Source of the DNA: a virus
Strand: one strand, 5' to 3'
Virus genome (UHGV): UHGV-0138524
DNA: 20,478 bases
A program made the position numbers and the translations under genes. This document shows positions 7,798 through 12,796 of this stretch, piece by piece. The notes under the pieces are model-generated. The model saw only the letters and a program-made list of their open reading frames with translations. It was not told where the DNA came from and did no database searches. Each line of letters opens with the position of its first letter. The first letter of the stretch is position 1.

Positions 7798-8337
7798 TCA
7801 AATCAGACCAAACGATGCGCCAATACCGCTCATGGTATCGACCACGCTCGACATAGCTGGATTAGTCTGCAGACGTGCATGCAGCGCCAGAGCCGACAAT
7901 GACAACATGCGAATGCCGGAGTTAACGCTTTCAATCATGTTGTGCTTACGGGCAGTGGTCAGACGTTCATCAGATACCGCGCCGCTCGCCAGTTCGCCGA
8001 GTTCACGCATCGCGCGCATGACATAAGACTGCAATTTGTCTTTAGCCAACTCATTAACCGGCACGCATGGTAGGCAGTGAATCTGCGCTAAAAAACCATC
8101 AATGAGGGTTGAGTCTTCGGTCAGGTCAGTCAGCAGCCACAATTCAGGCGGCGTGAACTGGTGAGGCTGTTCCGGGTTGAGCTTGTTACGTAACGTTTGA
8201 ACGTTCATACCTGCACGCTCGGCCAGCTTCGCCATGTTGTGACGCTGTGCGAAAATGCGGCATGCTTCGTCATAGTGGGGATGTTTGGAAACCTGAAAAT
8301 CAAACATGGTTAAATTCCCTCTAACTTGCATAATCAA
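7798..8337 (-). CDS. B: Replication protein B (P2 gpB-like)
   Basis: 179 aa MIMQVRGNLTMFDFQVSKHPHYDEACRIFAQRHNMAKLAERAGMNVQTLRNKLNPEQPHQF... resembles P2 B. Confidence 0.75.
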   Translation of the reverse strand: MIMQVRGNLTMFDFQVSKHPHYDEACRIFAQRHNMAKLAERAGMNVQTLRNKLNPEQPHQFTPPELWLLTDLTEDSTLIDGFLAQIHCLPCVPVNELAKDKLQSYVMRAMRELGELASGAVSDERLTTARKHNMIESVNSGIRMLSLSALALHARLQTNPAMSSVVDTMSGIGASFGLI

Positions 8338-8339
8338 AT

Positions 8340-8711
8340 TCAGTTAAGAGCGGTGCGCTGGTCGATGTAGCGACAATCAATCGCTTGTTGAGTCAGCTTA
8401 TCGCGCCATGCTTTTACATTTACGAGGGTTCGGCTTCGTTTAGCAGCTTCCTCTTTGTTGGAAAAGTCTTTGGTCGGAGCTTTGAGAAGGACTCCCTCAT
8501 CGAGCCATTGCCAGACCAGACGCTCGCTAACACCGCGAGTAGCGGCGAAGTCTTTCACAGTCATCGTGTCTGACATAGCGGAGCGAATCATTGTCTGTAG
8601 AGCTGGCAGCATGGCGGTAACGATGGCATCAAACTGTGTTGGGTCTAGCAGCACAGTTTGATTTTGTGAGTTTTGCGAGTCGTGCGTCGAGATTGATTTT
8701 GCATCTGACAT
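8340..8711 (-). CDS. Cox/Apl-like helix-turn-helix regulator or excisionase, first gene of the early lytic operon
   Basis: 123 aa with an HTH-like stretch MTVKDFAATRGVSERLVWQWLDEGVL; faces the repressor gene; the true start may be an internal Met. Confidence 0.45.
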   Translation of the reverse strand: MSDAKSISTHDSQNSQNQTVLLDPTQFDAIVTAMLPALQTMIRSAMSDTMTVKDFAATRGVSERLVWQWLDEGVLLKAPTKDFSNKEEAAKRSRTLVNVKAWRDKLTQQAIDCRYIDQRTALN

Positions 8712-8823
8712 ATCGCATTATCTCCTGTTGTTTGAAATGTAGTGCAGTGGTGTGCATCTTGGTCGGTGAGCACCAATATAGATCGCTAAATTTTGGTTGT
8801 AAACAAAATTCTTGTTGGTGTCA

Positions 8824-9670
8824 TATGTCTAAAAATGATGTTAATGCGTCTGCCGCATTGGAACGTGTCCTTTCTGCATACGGCTTTAAGCAGCAAAAGG
8901 AACTAGCCGAAAGGCTTGGCATACATGCAAACAACGTGAGTAGCTGGCTTGCTAGAAACGTAATCCCTAGCAACGTTTTCGTTGAGTGTGCTCTTGATAC
9001 TGGAGCTGACCTGCGATGGCTAATTAATGGTGAGCTTGCAAATGCAAGATTTGAAGTGGTGAAAACTAAGCTTAAAGGTAAGCAACTCTATGATGAAATC
9101 ATGGCAAATGGAGGGAGGGCGGTTCTGCGTCGGATTCTCGATGCGTATGGTTTTACTCTGCAAAAAGAGCTTGGAGATTTATTAGGTATATCTTCCGGCA
9201 CTATAAGCACTTGGGTTAGACGCGATTTTTTCCCCGGTGACGTGGTTGTCACTTGCGCCCTTGATACTGGCGTATCGTTAGAATGGTTATCAACCGGAAA
9301 AGGCCAGATGCGTAACAGTAATGATGGTGAACCGGCAAATGCTTTAACGATTAGAAAGTGCCGCCTCGAGGCTGGCGAACTCAAAGATATCGGACGCTGG
9401 ACTCCTGATATATCTATGGTTCCATCAAATACTGATGATTTAGTGTTTATTGATGGTGTGAGCACATCTTGGCTTGTTGATAGTTCTAACTCGAAGATAG
9501 GAAATGGTCGCTGGCTTATTGGTATTGATGGCGCACTCGATGTTTTTGACGTAATCAGGTTGCCAGGCGGAAAGGTCAGGTTATCAAATAAGTCTGCTGA
9601 GTTTGAATGTAATATTTCAGATATCACACCATCAGGTGCGGTTATTTTTACTTTGGAAAAGCATGTTTAA
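8824..9670 (+). CDS. CI-type immunity repressor (186 CI-like) with a tandemly duplicated N-terminal DNA-binding domain
   Basis: From the internal ATG at 8824 (MSKNDV...); repeat 1 LERVLSAYGFKQQKELAERLGIHANNVSSWLARNVIPSNVFVECALDTGADLRWLINGE and repeat 2 LRRILDAYGFTLQKELGDLLGISSGTISTWVRRDFFPGDVVVTCALDTGVSLEWLSTGK; the track ORF starts at 8636, inside the upstream gene. Confidence 0.65.
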
Positions 9671-9679
9671 GGAGCAGTA

Positions 9680-10018
9680 ATGAAAAAGTTTATATTTGCG
9701 ATAGTCTGCATTGCACTTTCTTCCTCAGCCATAGCCGCTGAGAAGTTTAAAGAGATAGACGGCGCTGCATATGGTGACAAGTGGCCTCTAACCTTTGAAA
9801 AGGCAAAGGTATCATGTGTTAACCGTGCTTATGCTTTTGTGTATGACATCAAAACTGATGATAGATATCCTCTGAATGGCATGGCGGTAGATGCTGTTAA
9901 ATCAGGAAAGCTGGAGGGGTCTAACTTAGATGACGTATGGAAGGATGACCCTGAGTATGACGGCGTTAAAATTTCAATTTCACCGGTGATTGATGCCGCT
10001 ACAGCCCTTTGTAATTAA
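9680..10018 (+). CDS. Secreted or periplasmic small protein (DUF2511/YebY-like, assigned from memory); moron between the repressor and int
   Basis: N-terminal signal peptide MKKFIFAIVCIALSSSAIAAE; GGAG 7 nt upstream of the ATG. Confidence 0.55.
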   Translation: MKKFIFAIVCIALSSSAIAAEKFKEIDGAAYGDKWPLTFEKAKVSCVNRAYAFVYDIKTDDRYPLNGMAVDAVKSGKLEGSNLDDVWKDDPEYDGVKISISPVIDAATALCN

Positions 10019-10042: not shown

Positions 10043-11092
10043 ATGACTGTAAGTAAACAAAAAAGTGGAAAATGGTTGTGTGAACTCTATCCAAATGGTC
10101 GAGAAGGGCGGCGTATACGTCGGCAGTTCAATACCAAAGGTGAGGCCGAGGCATTTGAAGCATTTACCAAAAGCGAGAGTGAAGATAAGCCGTGGCTCGG
10201 CAAGAAAGAAGACCGCCGACGCTTAAGCGAGATTATTCAGCTTTGGCACAATTTGCACGGTCAAGCGTTAGTCGCCAGTAAGTCGAGATTTGCAAAGCTT
10301 CAAATCGTATGTAATGGACTTGGCGACCCGATTGCATCTCGCCTTACCGCGAAAGACTGGGCTCATTATCGTGACCGTCGATTACGTGGTGAAATAGACA
10401 ATGGTTATCATAAAGACCCCTCGAAATGGATCGCCAAACCTATAACCGTCAATCGCGAACAACAATACCTAGAAGCAGTGTTTAATGAGCTCCGCCGGTT
10501 AGGGGAGTGGAGCCTACCCAATCCACTTGATGGGATCCGAGTATTCAAAGAAGCTGAGAAAGAAATGTCCTGGCTAACTTTGTCTCAGCTCCCGGAGCTG
10601 TTTCGAGCCTGCGAGCAATACGGCAAAGAAGACCTCACCATGATTGTTAAGGTGTGCCTTGCAACCGGCGCTCGATGGGGGGAAGCGGAGAGATTGACCC
10701 GACCTCAACTTTCTCCATATAAACTAACGTTCACCAAAACCAAAGGTAAGAAGAATCGCACAGTTCCTATTCCTAAATGGCTGTACGACGAGTTGTCCGT
10801 ACGTCAAGGCAGAATGTTTAAACCCTGCTATCAGGAGTTTAAAAAGATGCTCAAACTAACGAATATTGAATTGACGGAAGGGCAGAAGACGCACGTTTTG
10901 CGTCATACTTTTGGTGCGCATTTTATGATGAACGGAGGGAATATACTGGTGCTGCAGAAAATTCTCGGACATGCCAATATTCGAGAAACAATGAAGTATG
11001 CGCACTTTGCTCCTGACCACCTTGAACAAGCTGTAACCCTCAATCCGTTATCGCTGTATGTTGGCGACAATGTGGCGGCAGAGGTTGCATAA
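10043..11092 (+). CDS. int: Tyrosine integrase (P2/186 family)
   Basis: 349 aa; N-terminus ...GKWLCELYPNGREGRRIRRQFNTKGEAEAFE; catalytic-region signature VLRHTFGAHFMMNGGNILVLQKILGHANIRETMKYAH. Confidence 0.85.
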   Translation: MTVSKQKSGKWLCELYPNGREGRRIRRQFNTKGEAEAFEAFTKSESEDKPWLGKKEDRRRLSEIIQLWHNLHGQALVASKSRFAKLQIVCNGLGDPIASRLTAKDWAHYRDRRLRGEIDNGYHKDPSKWIAKPITVNREQQYLEAVFNELRRLGEWSLPNPLDGIRVFKEAEKEMSWLTLSQLPELFRACEQYGKEDLTMIVKVCLATGARWGEAERLTRPQLSPYKLTFTKTKGKKNRTVPIPKWLYDELSVRQGRMFKPCYQEFKKMLKLTNIELTEGQKTHVLRHTFGAHFMMNGGNILVLQKILGHANIRETMKYAHFAPDHLEQAVTLNPLSLYVGDNVAAEVA

Positions 11093-11227
11093 CACTGCAA
11101 TTCACTGCATTAAAAATTACTTTAACTAGTTGTTTTATATGGTAAGTGTTTGTTCGCTGTGGGGTGTTAATAGGAGCGTCTTAACTGATAACGTATTCGC
11201 GCTACATCCAAAGCGTGTTATGAAACA

Positions 11228-11257
11228 AGGGGTTAGCGAATTGCTAACCCCTTTTTT
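11228..11257 (+). terminator. Rho-independent terminator downstream of int
   Basis: Stem AGGGGTTAGC / GCTAACCCCT with loop GAATT, followed by T6. Confidence 0.6.
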
Positions 11258-11310
11258 ATTGGTGGTGGCGGCAAATTGGCGGCAGAGGTTGGAGCGATGG
11301 CGACAGATAT

Positions 11311-11331
11311 AAAAAAACCTGCCGAAGCAGG
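11311..11331 (-). terminator. Rho-independent terminator downstream of ogr
   Basis: On the minus strand: CCTGC-TTCG-GCAGG followed by T7, just after the ogr stop. Confidence 0.55.
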
Positions 11332-11332
11332 T

Positions 11333-11551
11333 TCAAAGCCAAAGTTGCTGTTGTTGGTTTCTGATGGGGTGTGGCGGAGCAGGATCAACAGTACCCGGTT
11401 TCACAATGAATCTTGATAGCGTCTCAAAAGTGATAAATGTACATCCGCAATTTATGTTCTGGCACTGGTGATAACGTTCTTTTGTTTCGGTGCTAAGGTA
11501 CCGGCTAGTGCGAGCATGTGCGGCGTTTTGGCATAACGGGCAGTGCATCAT
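11333..11551 (-). CDS. ogr: Ogr/Delta-family zinc-finger late-gene activator
   Basis: 72 aa MMHCPLCQNAAHARTSRYLSTETKERYHQCQNINCGCTFITFETLSRFIVKPG... closely resembles P2 Ogr; GGGGA upstream of this Met; the track ORF starts 15 codons further upstream. Confidence 0.85.
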   Translation of the reverse strand: MMHCPLCQNAAHARTSRYLSTETKERYHQCQNINCGCTFITFETLSRFIVKPGTVDPAPPHPIRNQQQQLWL

Positions 11552-11626
11552 AATTATTTCCCCTGCTGGCGTATCTGAGGGAATAATAAACTTCAAAATT
11601 GCATTTGCAAGTTTTGGTTTGCTTTT

Positions 11627-12796
11627 TCACTCCTCATTTTCTTCTGAGCTGTACTCCACATCGGAGAGTTTAACCTCAAGCTCTAAGCCCGTCGTGAAAC
11701 CGTTATTATTGAGGTTGTGGGTCACCTTGCTGATTAACCATGCCTGCTCGTCTATGACGCGCTTAAAGCCTGACACGCGTACAGGCGTCTCAGGAAATAA
11801 ATCCGCTCGCCCTAGCGCCAGTGTGATTGAAAACTCCGCAACACCTCGCTGCAGTTTATCCCACTTAGCCTGAGCGGCGCGCATCGCCTGTGCCTTTGAG
11901 GCATAGACTGTCGTCAGCGCCAGCACGTTATCGGCTTCACCGGCCATGTACTCACCCTCACGTGCTTCCTGTTCTTTTTTGACCTTTGTCTTTTTGCTGA
12001 CCGGCTTTGCTTTTGGGTGTTCCAGTGCGCGCAGGTGCTTCTCTTTTGGCTTGCGTTTCAGCGTTACTTTCTGCTTTTGTGGCTTCGGGTCTTTGGTGTG
12101 CAACCATTTAGCAGTGACGCCGGTATAAGCCCCACGGTCGGCAATGGCAAACTGATGACGGTCACCATCACTGCGGGTCAGCGTCATTTGCGGGACGGGT
12201 TTGCCGCTGGCCGTCATCGCACTACCGGCTTTCAGAAACAACAGTTTCCCTGCCTTCACCGATACCGTTGCCCCGTTGCGGTCAGCCAGTCGACTCAAAA
12301 ATACCGCGTCGGATTCCTGCGACTGGTCGATATGCGGTACCGGGATTTTTTTCAGCGATTCCGCAATGCTGGCCGTCAGTTTGTTGCGCTTTGCGATGGT
12401 ACTGACCAGTTCGCCGATGGTGGTGTCGTGCCATGACTCTTCACGCCTGGAATTTAGCGTGCCGCGAAAGTCCGCGCTGCGCGCCCGGATGGTCAGGGTA
12501 TCAGGAGCCCCCCGGTGCTCAATCTCATCGACCGTAAAATCCCCCTTATTCAGCAGCGCCGAACCCTGCCAGCCAAGCCACAACGTCAGCACTGCCCCGC
12601 GCAGGGGTAACTCGACTTTCCCATCGGTGTCATCGAGCTCAATGTCGAGCTGGTCAGCTTCAAAGCCCCTATTGTCCGTCATGGTGAGAGAAATCAGCCG
12701 GTCGCTGAAGTTGCTGGTAATGTCCTGACTGTTCAGCGTCAGCATAAAAGCCGGTGCAAGGCTGGCACCGGCGTCAATTGCCATCCCCGTTATCAT
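11627..12796 (-). CDS. D: Tail protein D (P2 gpD-like late control/tail protein)
   Basis: 389-aa ORF in conserved P2 order (ogr-D-U-T); sequence resembles gpD. Confidence 0.8.
   Translation of the reverse strand: MITGMAIDAGASLAPAFMLTLNSQDITSNFSDRLISLTMTDNRGFEADQLDIELDDTDGKVELPLRGAVLTLWLGWQGSALLNKGDFTVDEIEHRGAPDTLTIRARSADFRGTLNSRREESWHDTTIGELVSTIAKRNKLTASIAESLKKIPVPHIDQSQESDAVFLSRLADRNGATVSVKAGKLLFLKAGSAMTASGKPVPQMTLTRSDGDRHQFAIADRGAYTGVTAKWLHTKDPKPQKQKVTLKRKPKEKHLRALEHPKAKPVSKKTKVKKEQEAREGEYMAGEADNVLALTTVYASKAQAMRAAQAKWDKLQRGVAEFSITLALGRADLFPETPVRVSGFKRVIDEQAWLISKVTHNLNNNGFTTGLELEVKLSDVEYSSEENEE

Follow-up and report, generated by a model that had tools for sequence, protein, structure and literature searches.

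Introduction

To our knowledge, the switch of phage 186 is one of the few genetic switches that are understood quantitatively. It holds a puzzle, as the single DNA-binding head of its immunity repressor CI reads two unrelated operator classes while the 14-mer wheel of the protein bridges distant sites. Repressors of the 186 type are induced via an antirepressor (Tum) and not by RecA-stimulated self-cleavage. The 186 record annotates CI sites at the lytic promoter pR, at FL inside cI, at FR in the gap between apl and cII, and at pB. The wheel consists of seven dimers and is able to bridge pR to FL or FR (bioRxiv 10.1101/2021.10.29.466366). In this study, we analyzed the cI gene in a 20,478-nucleotide (nt) stretch of virus DNA (UHGV virus genome UHGV-0138524; the whole stretch is referred to as the window), for which an earlier note, made from the letters of the DNA, had proposed an immunity repressor with a tandemly duplicated DNA-binding domain.

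Sequence comparison confirmed that the gene encodes a CI immunity repressor of a PSP3-like (Eganvirus, P2/186 family) temperate phage, in which the N-terminal helix-turn-helix (HTH) head is duplicated in tandem. We consider it rather probable that the protein is a bi-specific repressor, the second head (D2) acting on conserved palindromes at the places of 186 FL, pB and FR, and the first head (D1) on a type-specific operator at pR that sets immunity. The functional asymmetry of the heads, together with the D2-type palindrome in linker codons and at the late-activator promoter, seems to have gone unnoticed before.

Results

A 186-Type Repressor With Two N-Terminal Heads

The open reading frame of cI begins with an ATG at 8825 and ends with a stop codon at 9668–9670, encoding 281 amino acids (aa). 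The start at 8824 given in the earlier note had to be shifted by one nucleotide, as the frame read from 8824 through 9670 contains 39 stops. The note had also considered that the first repeat might belong to a separate upstream gene. This is excluded, as no stop codon lies between the repeats and RefSeq annotates exactly 8825..9670 as a single coding sequence (WP_000041620.1, "phage repressor protein CI"); the homologue is likewise annotated as one gene in PSP3, SW9 and Midge. The gene and its parts are as follows.

8825..9670, plus strand: cI gene, 281-aa immunity repressor built as D1, linker, D2, linker and C-terminal domain (open reading frame, Pfam, 186 CI alignment, RefSeq)
8846..9028, plus strand: D1, the first (extra) five-helix HTH domain, aa ~8–68 (structure model, homologue comparison)
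9029..9112, plus strand: D1–D2 linker, aa ~69–96 (structure model)
9113..9295, plus strand: D2, the second HTH domain, aa ~97–157 (best Pfam stretch 99–163)
9350..9658, plus strand: C-terminal oligomerisation domain of the 186 CI type, aa ~176–278 (PF16452, superposition of the structure model)

The two consecutive repeats ahead of a C-terminal domain, which the earlier note had read from the translation, were borne out. Residues 10–70 could be aligned gap-free with residues 99–159; the BLOSUM62 score of this alignment was 169, compared with 23.8 ± 4.5 in 2000 shuffles (z = 32), and 46% of its 61 positions are identical between the paralogues D1 and D2. Pfam assigned PF07022 (Phage_CI_repr) to two stretches (E 1.5e-47) and one PF16452 (Phage_CI_C) to aa 176–269 (E 4.6e-19), while Peptidase_S24 (PF00717) gave no Pfam match in the protein at E ≤ 0.01. 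Further, aa 100–274 aligned with aa 10–182 of 186 CI (PDB 2fjr; E 4e-21, ~30% identity). This segment is the equivalent of the whole 186 CI, so that D2 plus the C-terminal domain make up the 186-CI part and the first ~92 residues, D1 and the linker, are extra.

An AlphaFold2 (AF2) model, with a mean predicted local distance difference test (pLDDT) score of 71, comprised three folded units, namely five-helix bundles at aa 8–68 and 97–157 and a beta domain at aa 176–278, connected by low-confidence linkers at aa 72–84 and 161–171. The D1 helices span aa 8–19, 24–31, 35–43, 49–59 and 63–68 (pLDDT ~76–80), and D2 has five helices as well. The D1–D2 linker was modelled as disordered, with pLDDT <50 for aa 72–84, except for a short helix at aa 86–94 directly ahead of D2. 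The modelled C-terminal domain superposed on that of 186 CI (2fkd_A) with a template modeling (TM) score of 0.88 and a root mean square deviation of 1.9 Å over 109 columns (Foldseek). The Pfam matches, the 2fjr alignment and this superposition agree with the attribution to the 186 kind of CI made in the note. The recognition helices of the two heads are unlike, being ANNVSSWLAR in D1 and SGTISTWVRR in D2. A terminator-like hairpin at 9126–9145 within D2 was discarded, as it is no more than expected by chance.

A Variable First Head and a Nearly Invariant Second Head

Among 126 tandem homologues, mean pairwise identity was 0.64 for D1, 0.61 for the D1–D2 linker and 0.74 for the C-terminal domain, but 0.93 for D2. 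Clustering at 85% separated D1 into seven types but put 123 of the 126 D2 sequences into one cluster. At the nucleotide level, D2 was only ~0.75–0.88 identical to its counterparts in PSP3, Midge and 613R3, so the constraint on D2 acts on the protein, and D2 is not simply recent DNA. In and around the recognition helix of D1 (helix 3), positions 34–38, 40, 42 and 43 vary, while S39, W41 and R44 of this helix and the hydrophobic core of the fold are invariant. Such a pattern is that expected of a functional head with changing specificity, not of decay.

The variation reaches from D1 into the adjacent DNA. From fil up to and including the apl analogue, as well as over the left ~55 nt of the intergenic region, identity of the window to phage 613R3 is ~100%; it then falls to 0.3–0.6 at ~8760, that is, at pR, stays low through D1 and recovers partially in D2. 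The exchangeable unit therefore starts at the pR operator region and includes D1. The D1 type of the window is that of SW9 and differs from those of PSP3, 613R3 and Midge, as does the pR operator block. It appears that cI and the DUF2511 gene were exchanged together as one cassette, a breakpoint of which falls exactly at pR.

On a larger scale, sharp mosaic junctions were observed at ~8755–8765 and ~10050, with int again ~97% identical to that of 613R3. Between the junctions, cI and the DUF2511 gene are SW9-like (85–95%) and only 30–80% identical to 613R3.

A Type-Specific Inverted Repeat Over pR

Two elements lie between cI and the divergent, apl-like gene, close to the cI start.

8775..8803, minus strand: pR-like lytic promoter, −35 TTTACA at 8803..8798, 17-nt spacer, −10 TATATT at 8780..8775 (consensus scan, 10/12 matches)
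8789..8810, unstranded: inverted repeat AATTTTGGTT-GT-AAACAAAATT, 22 bp, candidate type-specific D1 operator astride the pR −35 and unique in the window

The promoter reads towards the apl-like gene and abuts the cI start, in the same place as 186 pR. Of the repeats in the variable block, which begins at ~8760, this inverted repeat is the only one conserved within the immunity type of the window. SW9, Yokenella L010 and Buttiauxella L033 combine the D1 helix ..NNVSSWLARN.. of the window with AATTTT(T)G...CAAAA(A)TT around TGTAAA, and L033 keeps the AATTTTG...CAAAATT-type repeat despite an unrelated left flank. The TGTAAA hexamer itself is kept across most immunity types. Other D1 types go with other pR palindromes, these being ATCGCAAATGCGAT in the Kosakonia type, TCGCAAAATGCGA in the Serratia type and ATCGCT-N24-AGCGAT in the Pectobacterium type. 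These associations suggest that D1 is the immunity-specificity head and reads the pR operator.

The earlier note had expected paired half-sites with matching spacing in 8712–8823. The data do not show such an arrangement. The left ~55 nt are the same across immunity types, the only candidate operator conserved within the immunity type is the symmetric 22-bp repeat at 8789–8810, and the sites matching D2 are symmetric palindromes elsewhere (9035, 11598 and 8325). The note had further supposed that the duplication could affect immunity specificity or operator spacing. The part on specificity fits the variable D1 and pR DNA beside a near-invariant D2, and the part on spacing is not supported.

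Two other candidates for D1 sites were tried. The sequence TTTTGGTT, which occurs only at 8791 and 11612 in the window, was considered as an operator common to pR and the ogr promoter and was rejected because the stretch upstream of ogr is nearly the same in all D1 types. The TTGGT/ACCAA repeats at ~8759–8776 and TTGGTG at 8815 were dismissed as extra half-sites, because each is either part of the block common to all types or missing from L010 and L033, whose D1 is that of the window. TTGGTG beside the cI start is more likely a ribosome-binding region.

D2-Type Palindromes at Promoters and Accessory Sites

A candidate site for D2 was provided by single-head relatives. Eighteen loci from Rahnella, Ewingella, Chimaeribacter and Franconibacter encode CIs of 194–196 aa with a D2-like head, in most of which SSGTISTWVRR is identical to that of D2. 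In 14 of the 18, CTTGCA-TT-TGC(A/G)AG (CTTGCATTTGC(A/G)AG) is found 53 nt before the cI start; there it takes up the whole 17-nt spacer between TTGACA and TAGATT of a pR on the minus strand, the classical position of an operator. The copy 53 nt upstream of cI in L080 (Rahnella ecdela) reads CTCGCA-TT-TGCGAG, with both arms changed and the symmetry kept, and this compensatory change supports recognition of a symmetric site.

In the window, two sites matched YTYGCAWWTGCRAR with at most one mismatch, compared with 0.16 expected from shuffles, and a weaker palindrome was found at a third position.

9035..9048, unstranded: perfect palindrome CTTGCA-AA-TGCAAG (CTTGCAAATGCAAG), candidate D2 operator at the place of 186 FL; no other site in the window matches perfectly
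11598..11611, unstranded: palindrome ATTGCA-TT-TGCAAG (ATTGCATTTGCAAG), candidate D2 operator at the place of the 186 pB operators; one mismatch at the outermost base, exact 12-nt core
8325..8338, unstranded: weak palindrome CTTGCATAATCAAA in the apl–cII gap, possible counterpart of 186 FR with low confidence; two mismatches to the model

The site at 9035–9048 lies in the D1–D2 linker, within the codons GAG CTT GCA AAT GCA AGA (E-L-A-N-A-R). That at 11598–11611 covers the −35 of a promoter-like site of ogr on the minus strand (−35 TTGCAA at 11610..11605, −10 TATTAT ending at 11583); this copy, TTGCATTTGCAAG, is invariant in the four complete phage genomes compared, those of PSP3, SW9, Midge and RCIP0057, independent of the D1 type. 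Many tandem loci have a better copy of the FR-like site at the equivalent position, −495..−507; that of L068, for instance, reads TTTGCAAATGCAAA and that of L010 TTTGCATATTCAAG. No D2-type half-site was detected in 8760–8824 of the window. Taken with the single-head loci, these sites suggest that D2 reads CTTGCA-WW-TGCAAG.

Like palindromes are more numerous in the Kosakonia-type loci (L014–L034, L046), in which up to four were observed: ATCGCAAATGCGAT at pR (−32/−44), ATTGCATTTGAGAG at the start of the apl-like gene (~−157), CTTGCAAAAGCAAA at the apl–cII gap (~−500) and TTTGCAAATGCAAA in the linker. The linker of L031 carries TCGCATTTGCGA.

The Linker Palindrome Is Maintained in Codons

The 12-nt core TYGCAWWTGCRA was present with at most one mismatch in the ~93-nt linker DNA of 57 of 67 tandem loci, in 40 of these 57 as an exact match, while it occurred at the same tolerance 0 times in the 37.5 kb of DNA that codes for D2 and the C-terminal domain of the same genes. 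The site occurs in two reading registers: the encoded peptide is [L/F]-A-[N/K]-A in 48 loci and S-H-L-Q (TCG CAT TTG CAA) in the other nine, where the site is displaced by three codons and by one register. Where the peptide is L/F-A-N/K-A, the first alanine codon is GCA in 41 of 41 cases (19% background) and the second is GCA 33 times and GCG 8 times, both of which fit the palindrome model; the leucine codon is CTT in 19 of 20 cases against a background of 18%. In the codons just upstream of the site (W-L-x-x-G-E), third positions vary freely. As a stem of 6 bp with a 2-nt loop gives no stable hairpin, a protein-binding site is the natural reading of the palindrome.

The palindrome lies 31 nt before Lys86, which is the position of the single-head start codon, and aa 86–96 (KQLYDEIMANG) correspond in the alignment to MQLDELEGG, the N-terminus of the single-head relatives. 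The linker probably stems from the operator and 5′ leader of an ancestor with one head, which came to be translated; this proposal draws mostly on the palindrome and on the KQLYDEI/MQLDEL peptide match. The direction of evolution would then be the gain of a head; the opposite direction, loss of D1 in the Rahnella lineage, is possible.

Distribution and Origin of the Two-Headed CI

Full-length tandem CIs were detected by tblastn in the Salmonella phages SW9 and SI22 (both 91.5%), PSP3 (72.9%) and SEN1, in the Escherichia phages 613R3 and Midge, in Klebsiella phage RCIP0057 (67%), and more distantly in Klebsiella 4LV2017 and many relatives (32%), while 186, ESSI-2, RE2010 and others gave single-head matches. 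In the best 120 protein clusters at 90% identity, nearly all members are 276–289 aa long, two truncated entries excepted. They come from Escherichia, Salmonella, Klebsiella, Enterobacter, Citrobacter, Cronobacter, Kosakonia and other genera, and one of these clusters occurs on 737 contigs. In all, more than 120 clusters at this identity, and hundreds of prophages of Enterobacterales, have the two-head form. The window protein has the traits of the PSP3-type subgroup, namely D1, linker, D2 and C-terminal domain in a chain of ~276–290 aa, the D2 motif ISTWVRRDFFPGDVVV and the TYGCAWWTGCRA palindrome in the linker DNA.

For the wider family, representatives at 50% identity were searched with D2 plus the C-terminal domain as query, and the best 150 matches were taken. 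Among these, 83 clusters bear the C-terminal domain, 70 with a single head and 13 (~16%) with two. A scan of one genome per species yielded 62 tandem and 18 single-head loci, a ratio that is biased because the scan was seeded with D2 peptides. The earlier note had named, as evidence against its proposal, that the two-domain arrangement might be the common form in 186-like repressors. On these sequences the two-head form is the rule in the PSP3 branch and a minority across the whole 186-type family; it is neither rare nor a new protein.

Neighbour-joining of the individual heads indicated at least three independent duplications. The D1 heads of the PSP3 group cluster together, as do the D2 heads, and D2, the orthologue of the single head in 186-type CI, groups with single-domain CIs. 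The two heads of the 4LV2017 group and of the P0179/P0194/P0197 group have their closest relatives in one another or in other single-head lineages, and are further from the D1 or D2 of the PSP3 type. An operator copy was sought in the linker of the 4LV2017 lineage, and only a loose GTTCACA similarity to the upstream region was found.

Two side observations concern these relatives. In 4LV2017 (locus L002, 2417–3358), the GTTCACA motif upstream of cI and in the inter-head linker recalls the ATTCAC half-site of 186. The proteins P0216 (525 aa), P0269, P0254 and P0265 contain several partial or complete HTH copies of the Phage_CI_repr type and no CI C-terminal domain, P0216 having up to seven short matches.

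PSP3 CI (NP_958086, 286 aa) was sequenced about 2003. No paper describing the duplication of the CI head was found in the open-access literature. The length of PsP3 CI was ascribed to a "longer C-terminal domain" (Nilsson 2011; PMC3448106). The alignments described above show that PsP3 CI is longer because it has a second N-terminal head, which was presumably masked there because the alignment paired D1 with the 186 head.

Genomic Context of cI

The neighbourhood of cI includes two further genes that are relevant to the candidate sites.

8340..8711, minus strand: first gene on the lytic side, 123 aa, in the position of 186 apl and P2 cox (phrog_3554, E 3e-75)
11333..11551, minus strand: gene of an ogr/B-type late activator, 72 aa, starting MMHCPLCQ (PSP3 and Midge homologues annotated as Ogr)

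cI is the first gene of a rightward operon, followed by a DUF2511 gene (9680..10018) and int (10043..11092). Divergent from it are the 123-aa apl/cox analogue, cII (PF06892) and fil, which is the layout of 186 and PSP3. The apl-like gene has a weak match to the Cox-like excisionase phrog_575 (E 8e-5) and is the homologue of PSP3 orf30; in Midge it is annotated as Cox on HHpred evidence. The PSP3 homologue has been called a singleton without detectable domain (PMC3448106). cII is placed at 7798..8307 by RefSeq, which like PSP3 uses the ATG at 8307 (169 aa), whereas the program-made reading frame starts at a TTG (179 aa, 7798–8337). The gap between apl and cII (8308–8339, 32 nt) contains the FR-like site and, by analogy with 186, may overlap the CII-activated pE promoter.

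Beyond int (11093–11640) follow an attP-like region, a strong terminator-like hairpin at 11315–11334, ogr and the tail gene D. The attP-like region, ogr and gene D after int indicate that the window is in vegetative (circular, phage) gene order and not in the order of an integrated prophage. The early region is 100% identical to prophages in Escherichia coli chromosomes, and in E. coli MB06232 the identical region stops at host yfiB. The DUF2511 gene (9680–10018, plus strand) encodes a signal-peptide-like N-terminus and is present in PSP3, SW9 and Midge; 186 has nothing between cI and int. It is probably a lysogenic-conversion "moron" expressed together with cI.

Discussion

A Proposed Division of Labour Between the Heads

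In the proposed mechanism, D2 would bind CTTGCA-WW-TGCAAG at 9035–9048 and 11598–11611 and, weakly, at 8325–8338, and D1 would bind the 22-bp repeat at 8789–8810 over pR and thereby set immunity. Each symmetric site would be occupied by like heads from two chains, and the C-terminal domain of the 186 type would supply oligomerisation, by analogy into a wheel. The two classes of sites that one head reads in 186 would here be divided between two heads. A fuller scenario, which we put forward tentatively and hold to be plausible if slightly short of probable, is that the second head was gained by an in-frame fusion across the old operator and leader, splitting the dual recognition of the 186 type. 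D1 would have become hypervariable, serving immunity at pR, and D2 would have been frozen on the accessory sites, one of which would be a functional operator in the linker codons. New immunities would then arise by swapping the pR operator together with D1, with looping, late-gene control and oligomerisation left untouched.

Several points weigh against this division of labour. Every assignment of a head to a site is one that we infer from sequence, and the predicted TM score of 0.40 for the AF2 model leaves the relative orientation of the heads undefined. Because D1 and pR are adjacent, their co-variation could reflect linkage in one recombination cassette instead of co-adaptation. The site classes are not cleanly separate everywhere, as the Kosakonia-type pR palindrome ATCGCAAATGCGAT also fits a loose D2 core pattern. 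The FR-like site of the window is weak, with its two mismatches, and about 10 of the 67 tandem loci have no good linker site. Beyond the palindrome, the similarity between linker DNA and the pR region of single-head loci is marginal (score 20–25 against a shuffle mean of 15 and a maximum of 24–31). The nominal Fisher p-values for codon fixation at the linker site (1e-13 to 1e-28) are too small, as they overstate independence among loci that share ancestry. Despite the inflated p-values, the conservation of the linker site at the DNA level is qualitatively clear.

Other readings of the two heads were weighed against the same data. It is quite unlikely that D1 and D2 of one chain act as a single-chain pseudo-dimer on the two halves of a composite pR operator, the duplication altering half-site spacing or stoichiometry. 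The linker of ~28 residues could span adjacent major grooves, and the heads are paralogous with 46% identity over 61 positions; however, their recognition helices are unlike, yet both classes of candidate sites are internally symmetric (AATTTTG..CAAAATT and CTTGCA..TGCAAG), which fits a pairing of like heads from two chains. Moreover, no D2-type half-site is present in 8760–8824, and the left intergenic part is identical across immunity types. A role of D1 as a variable regulatory or decoy module that does not bind DNA, such as a target of a Tum-like antirepressor or a shield, with D2 binding all operators, is also unlikely. An arms race with protein antagonists would be expected to yield a rapidly diversifying D1 beside a frozen D2, and CIs of the 186 type are inactivated by an antirepressor and not by RecA cleavage. 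Against this, pR in this phage lacks a D2-type palindrome, so that D2 alone would have nothing to bind there; the Ser, Trp and Arg of D1 helix 3 are invariant with the whole hydrophobic core kept; and the pR DNA changes with the D1 type, the same D1 helix going with the same repeat.

In a further reading, the linker palindrome would be a functionless evolutionary leftover or a by-product of the ELANA peptide, and CI would work like 186 CI with a redundant head. The peptide (E)-[L/F]-A-[N/K]-A is indeed fairly conserved, a good site has been lost in ~15% of the tandem loci, and descent of all loci from one fusion inflates the apparent conservation. Nine loci nevertheless keep the site in the other register, where it encodes S-H-L-Q and not L-A-N-A. 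Third positions are fixed at the site, whereas the flanking W-L-x-x-G-E codons are synonymously free, and the same palindrome stands at the ogr promoter and at the FR-like position, free of coding constraint. We give this relic explanation a low probability. Finally, two products might be made, the full-length protein and a 186-sized form of D2 plus the C-terminal domain initiated at Met93 (9101), which would mix in the oligomer. Met93 stands almost exactly at the start of 186 CI and of the single-headed relatives, but it is replaced by Leu or Val in many homologues, no Shine-Dalgarno-like sequence precedes 9101, and a promoter scan of the plus strand found no internal promoter, which makes this alternative highly improbable.

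If the division of labour between D1 and D2 is true, the widespread PSP3-type repressor would be a natural dissection of the 186 system, with its tasks split over heads that can be deleted, swapped and mutated separately. Heteroimmunity would then evolve modularly, a cassette of ~300 bp with the pR operator and D1 recombining while the rest of the repressor and the accessory sites stay fixed. The linker palindrome offers a clear example, seen in two reading registers, of selection keeping a regulatory DNA site within the codons of a gene. Such prophages are common in Klebsiella, Enterobacter, Salmonella and E. coli, and annotation pipelines label the protein just "repressor CI"; immunity typing by D1 would be straightforward. 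The Kosakonia-type loci are the best system in which to map the whole set of sites.

Comparison With Known Systems

The window CI shares with lambda CI and LexA an HTH head followed by a beta-rich C-terminal domain, and Foldseek returned low-score matches to the C-terminal domains of both. The TM scores were only 0.4–0.6, compared with 0.88 for 186 CI. Repressors of the S24 family have a Ser-Lys dyad and an Ala-Gly cleavage site; the window CI, having no S24 match, stands outside that family. The C-type repressors of P2 are single-domain proteins of ~99 aa that bind direct repeats, from which the window CI differs in architecture and Pfam families. C-type and CI-type repressors cannot be aligned (PMC3448106).

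Other two-headed CIs are more distant. The Klebsiella 4LV2017 CI (313 aa), P0134 and P0179/P0194/P0197 also have two PF07022-type heads and the C-terminal domain, but they derive from independent duplications and are 29–32% identical to the window CI. The prophage CIs of Rahnella, Ewingella, Chimaeribacter and Franconibacter (L070–L087) share the D2-like head, a homologous C-terminal domain (45–51% overall identity) and the same palindrome. They differ in that D1 is absent and the palindrome lies in the promoter spacer as the pR operator, not inside the gene.

The closest relatives are PSP3, SW9, SI22, SEN1, Midge, 613R3 and RCIP0057, which have the same tandem architecture and gene neighbourhood at 67–92% identity. 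D2 is near-identical in all three sequence types compared (SW9, PSP3/613R3 and Midge/RCIP0057), and PSP3, SW9 and 613R3 also carry the linker palindrome. No biochemical study of PSP3-type tandem CIs was found in the literature searched.

With 186, the window shares the PF07022 and PF16452 families, the C-terminal fold (TM 0.88) and the plan of the switch, in which cI heads a cI–int lysogenic operon divergent from the apl-like gene, cII and fil, and pR abuts the cI start. The candidate sites are also predicted in the arrangement of the 186 sites, with one over pR (8789–8810), one inside cI (9035–9048), one in the apl–cII gap (8325–8338) and one at the late-activator promoter (11598–11611). In contrast, the window has a DUF2511 gene between cI and int, and its CI has two heads and 281 aa, compared with one head and 192 aa in 186 CI. 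The 186 operators, ATTCAC-N5-GTGAAT at FL, FR and pB and TCTCCCAATTGAGAGA at pR, are unrelated in sequence to the candidates in the window. While one head reads both site classes in 186, the classes in the window are apparently divided over two heads.

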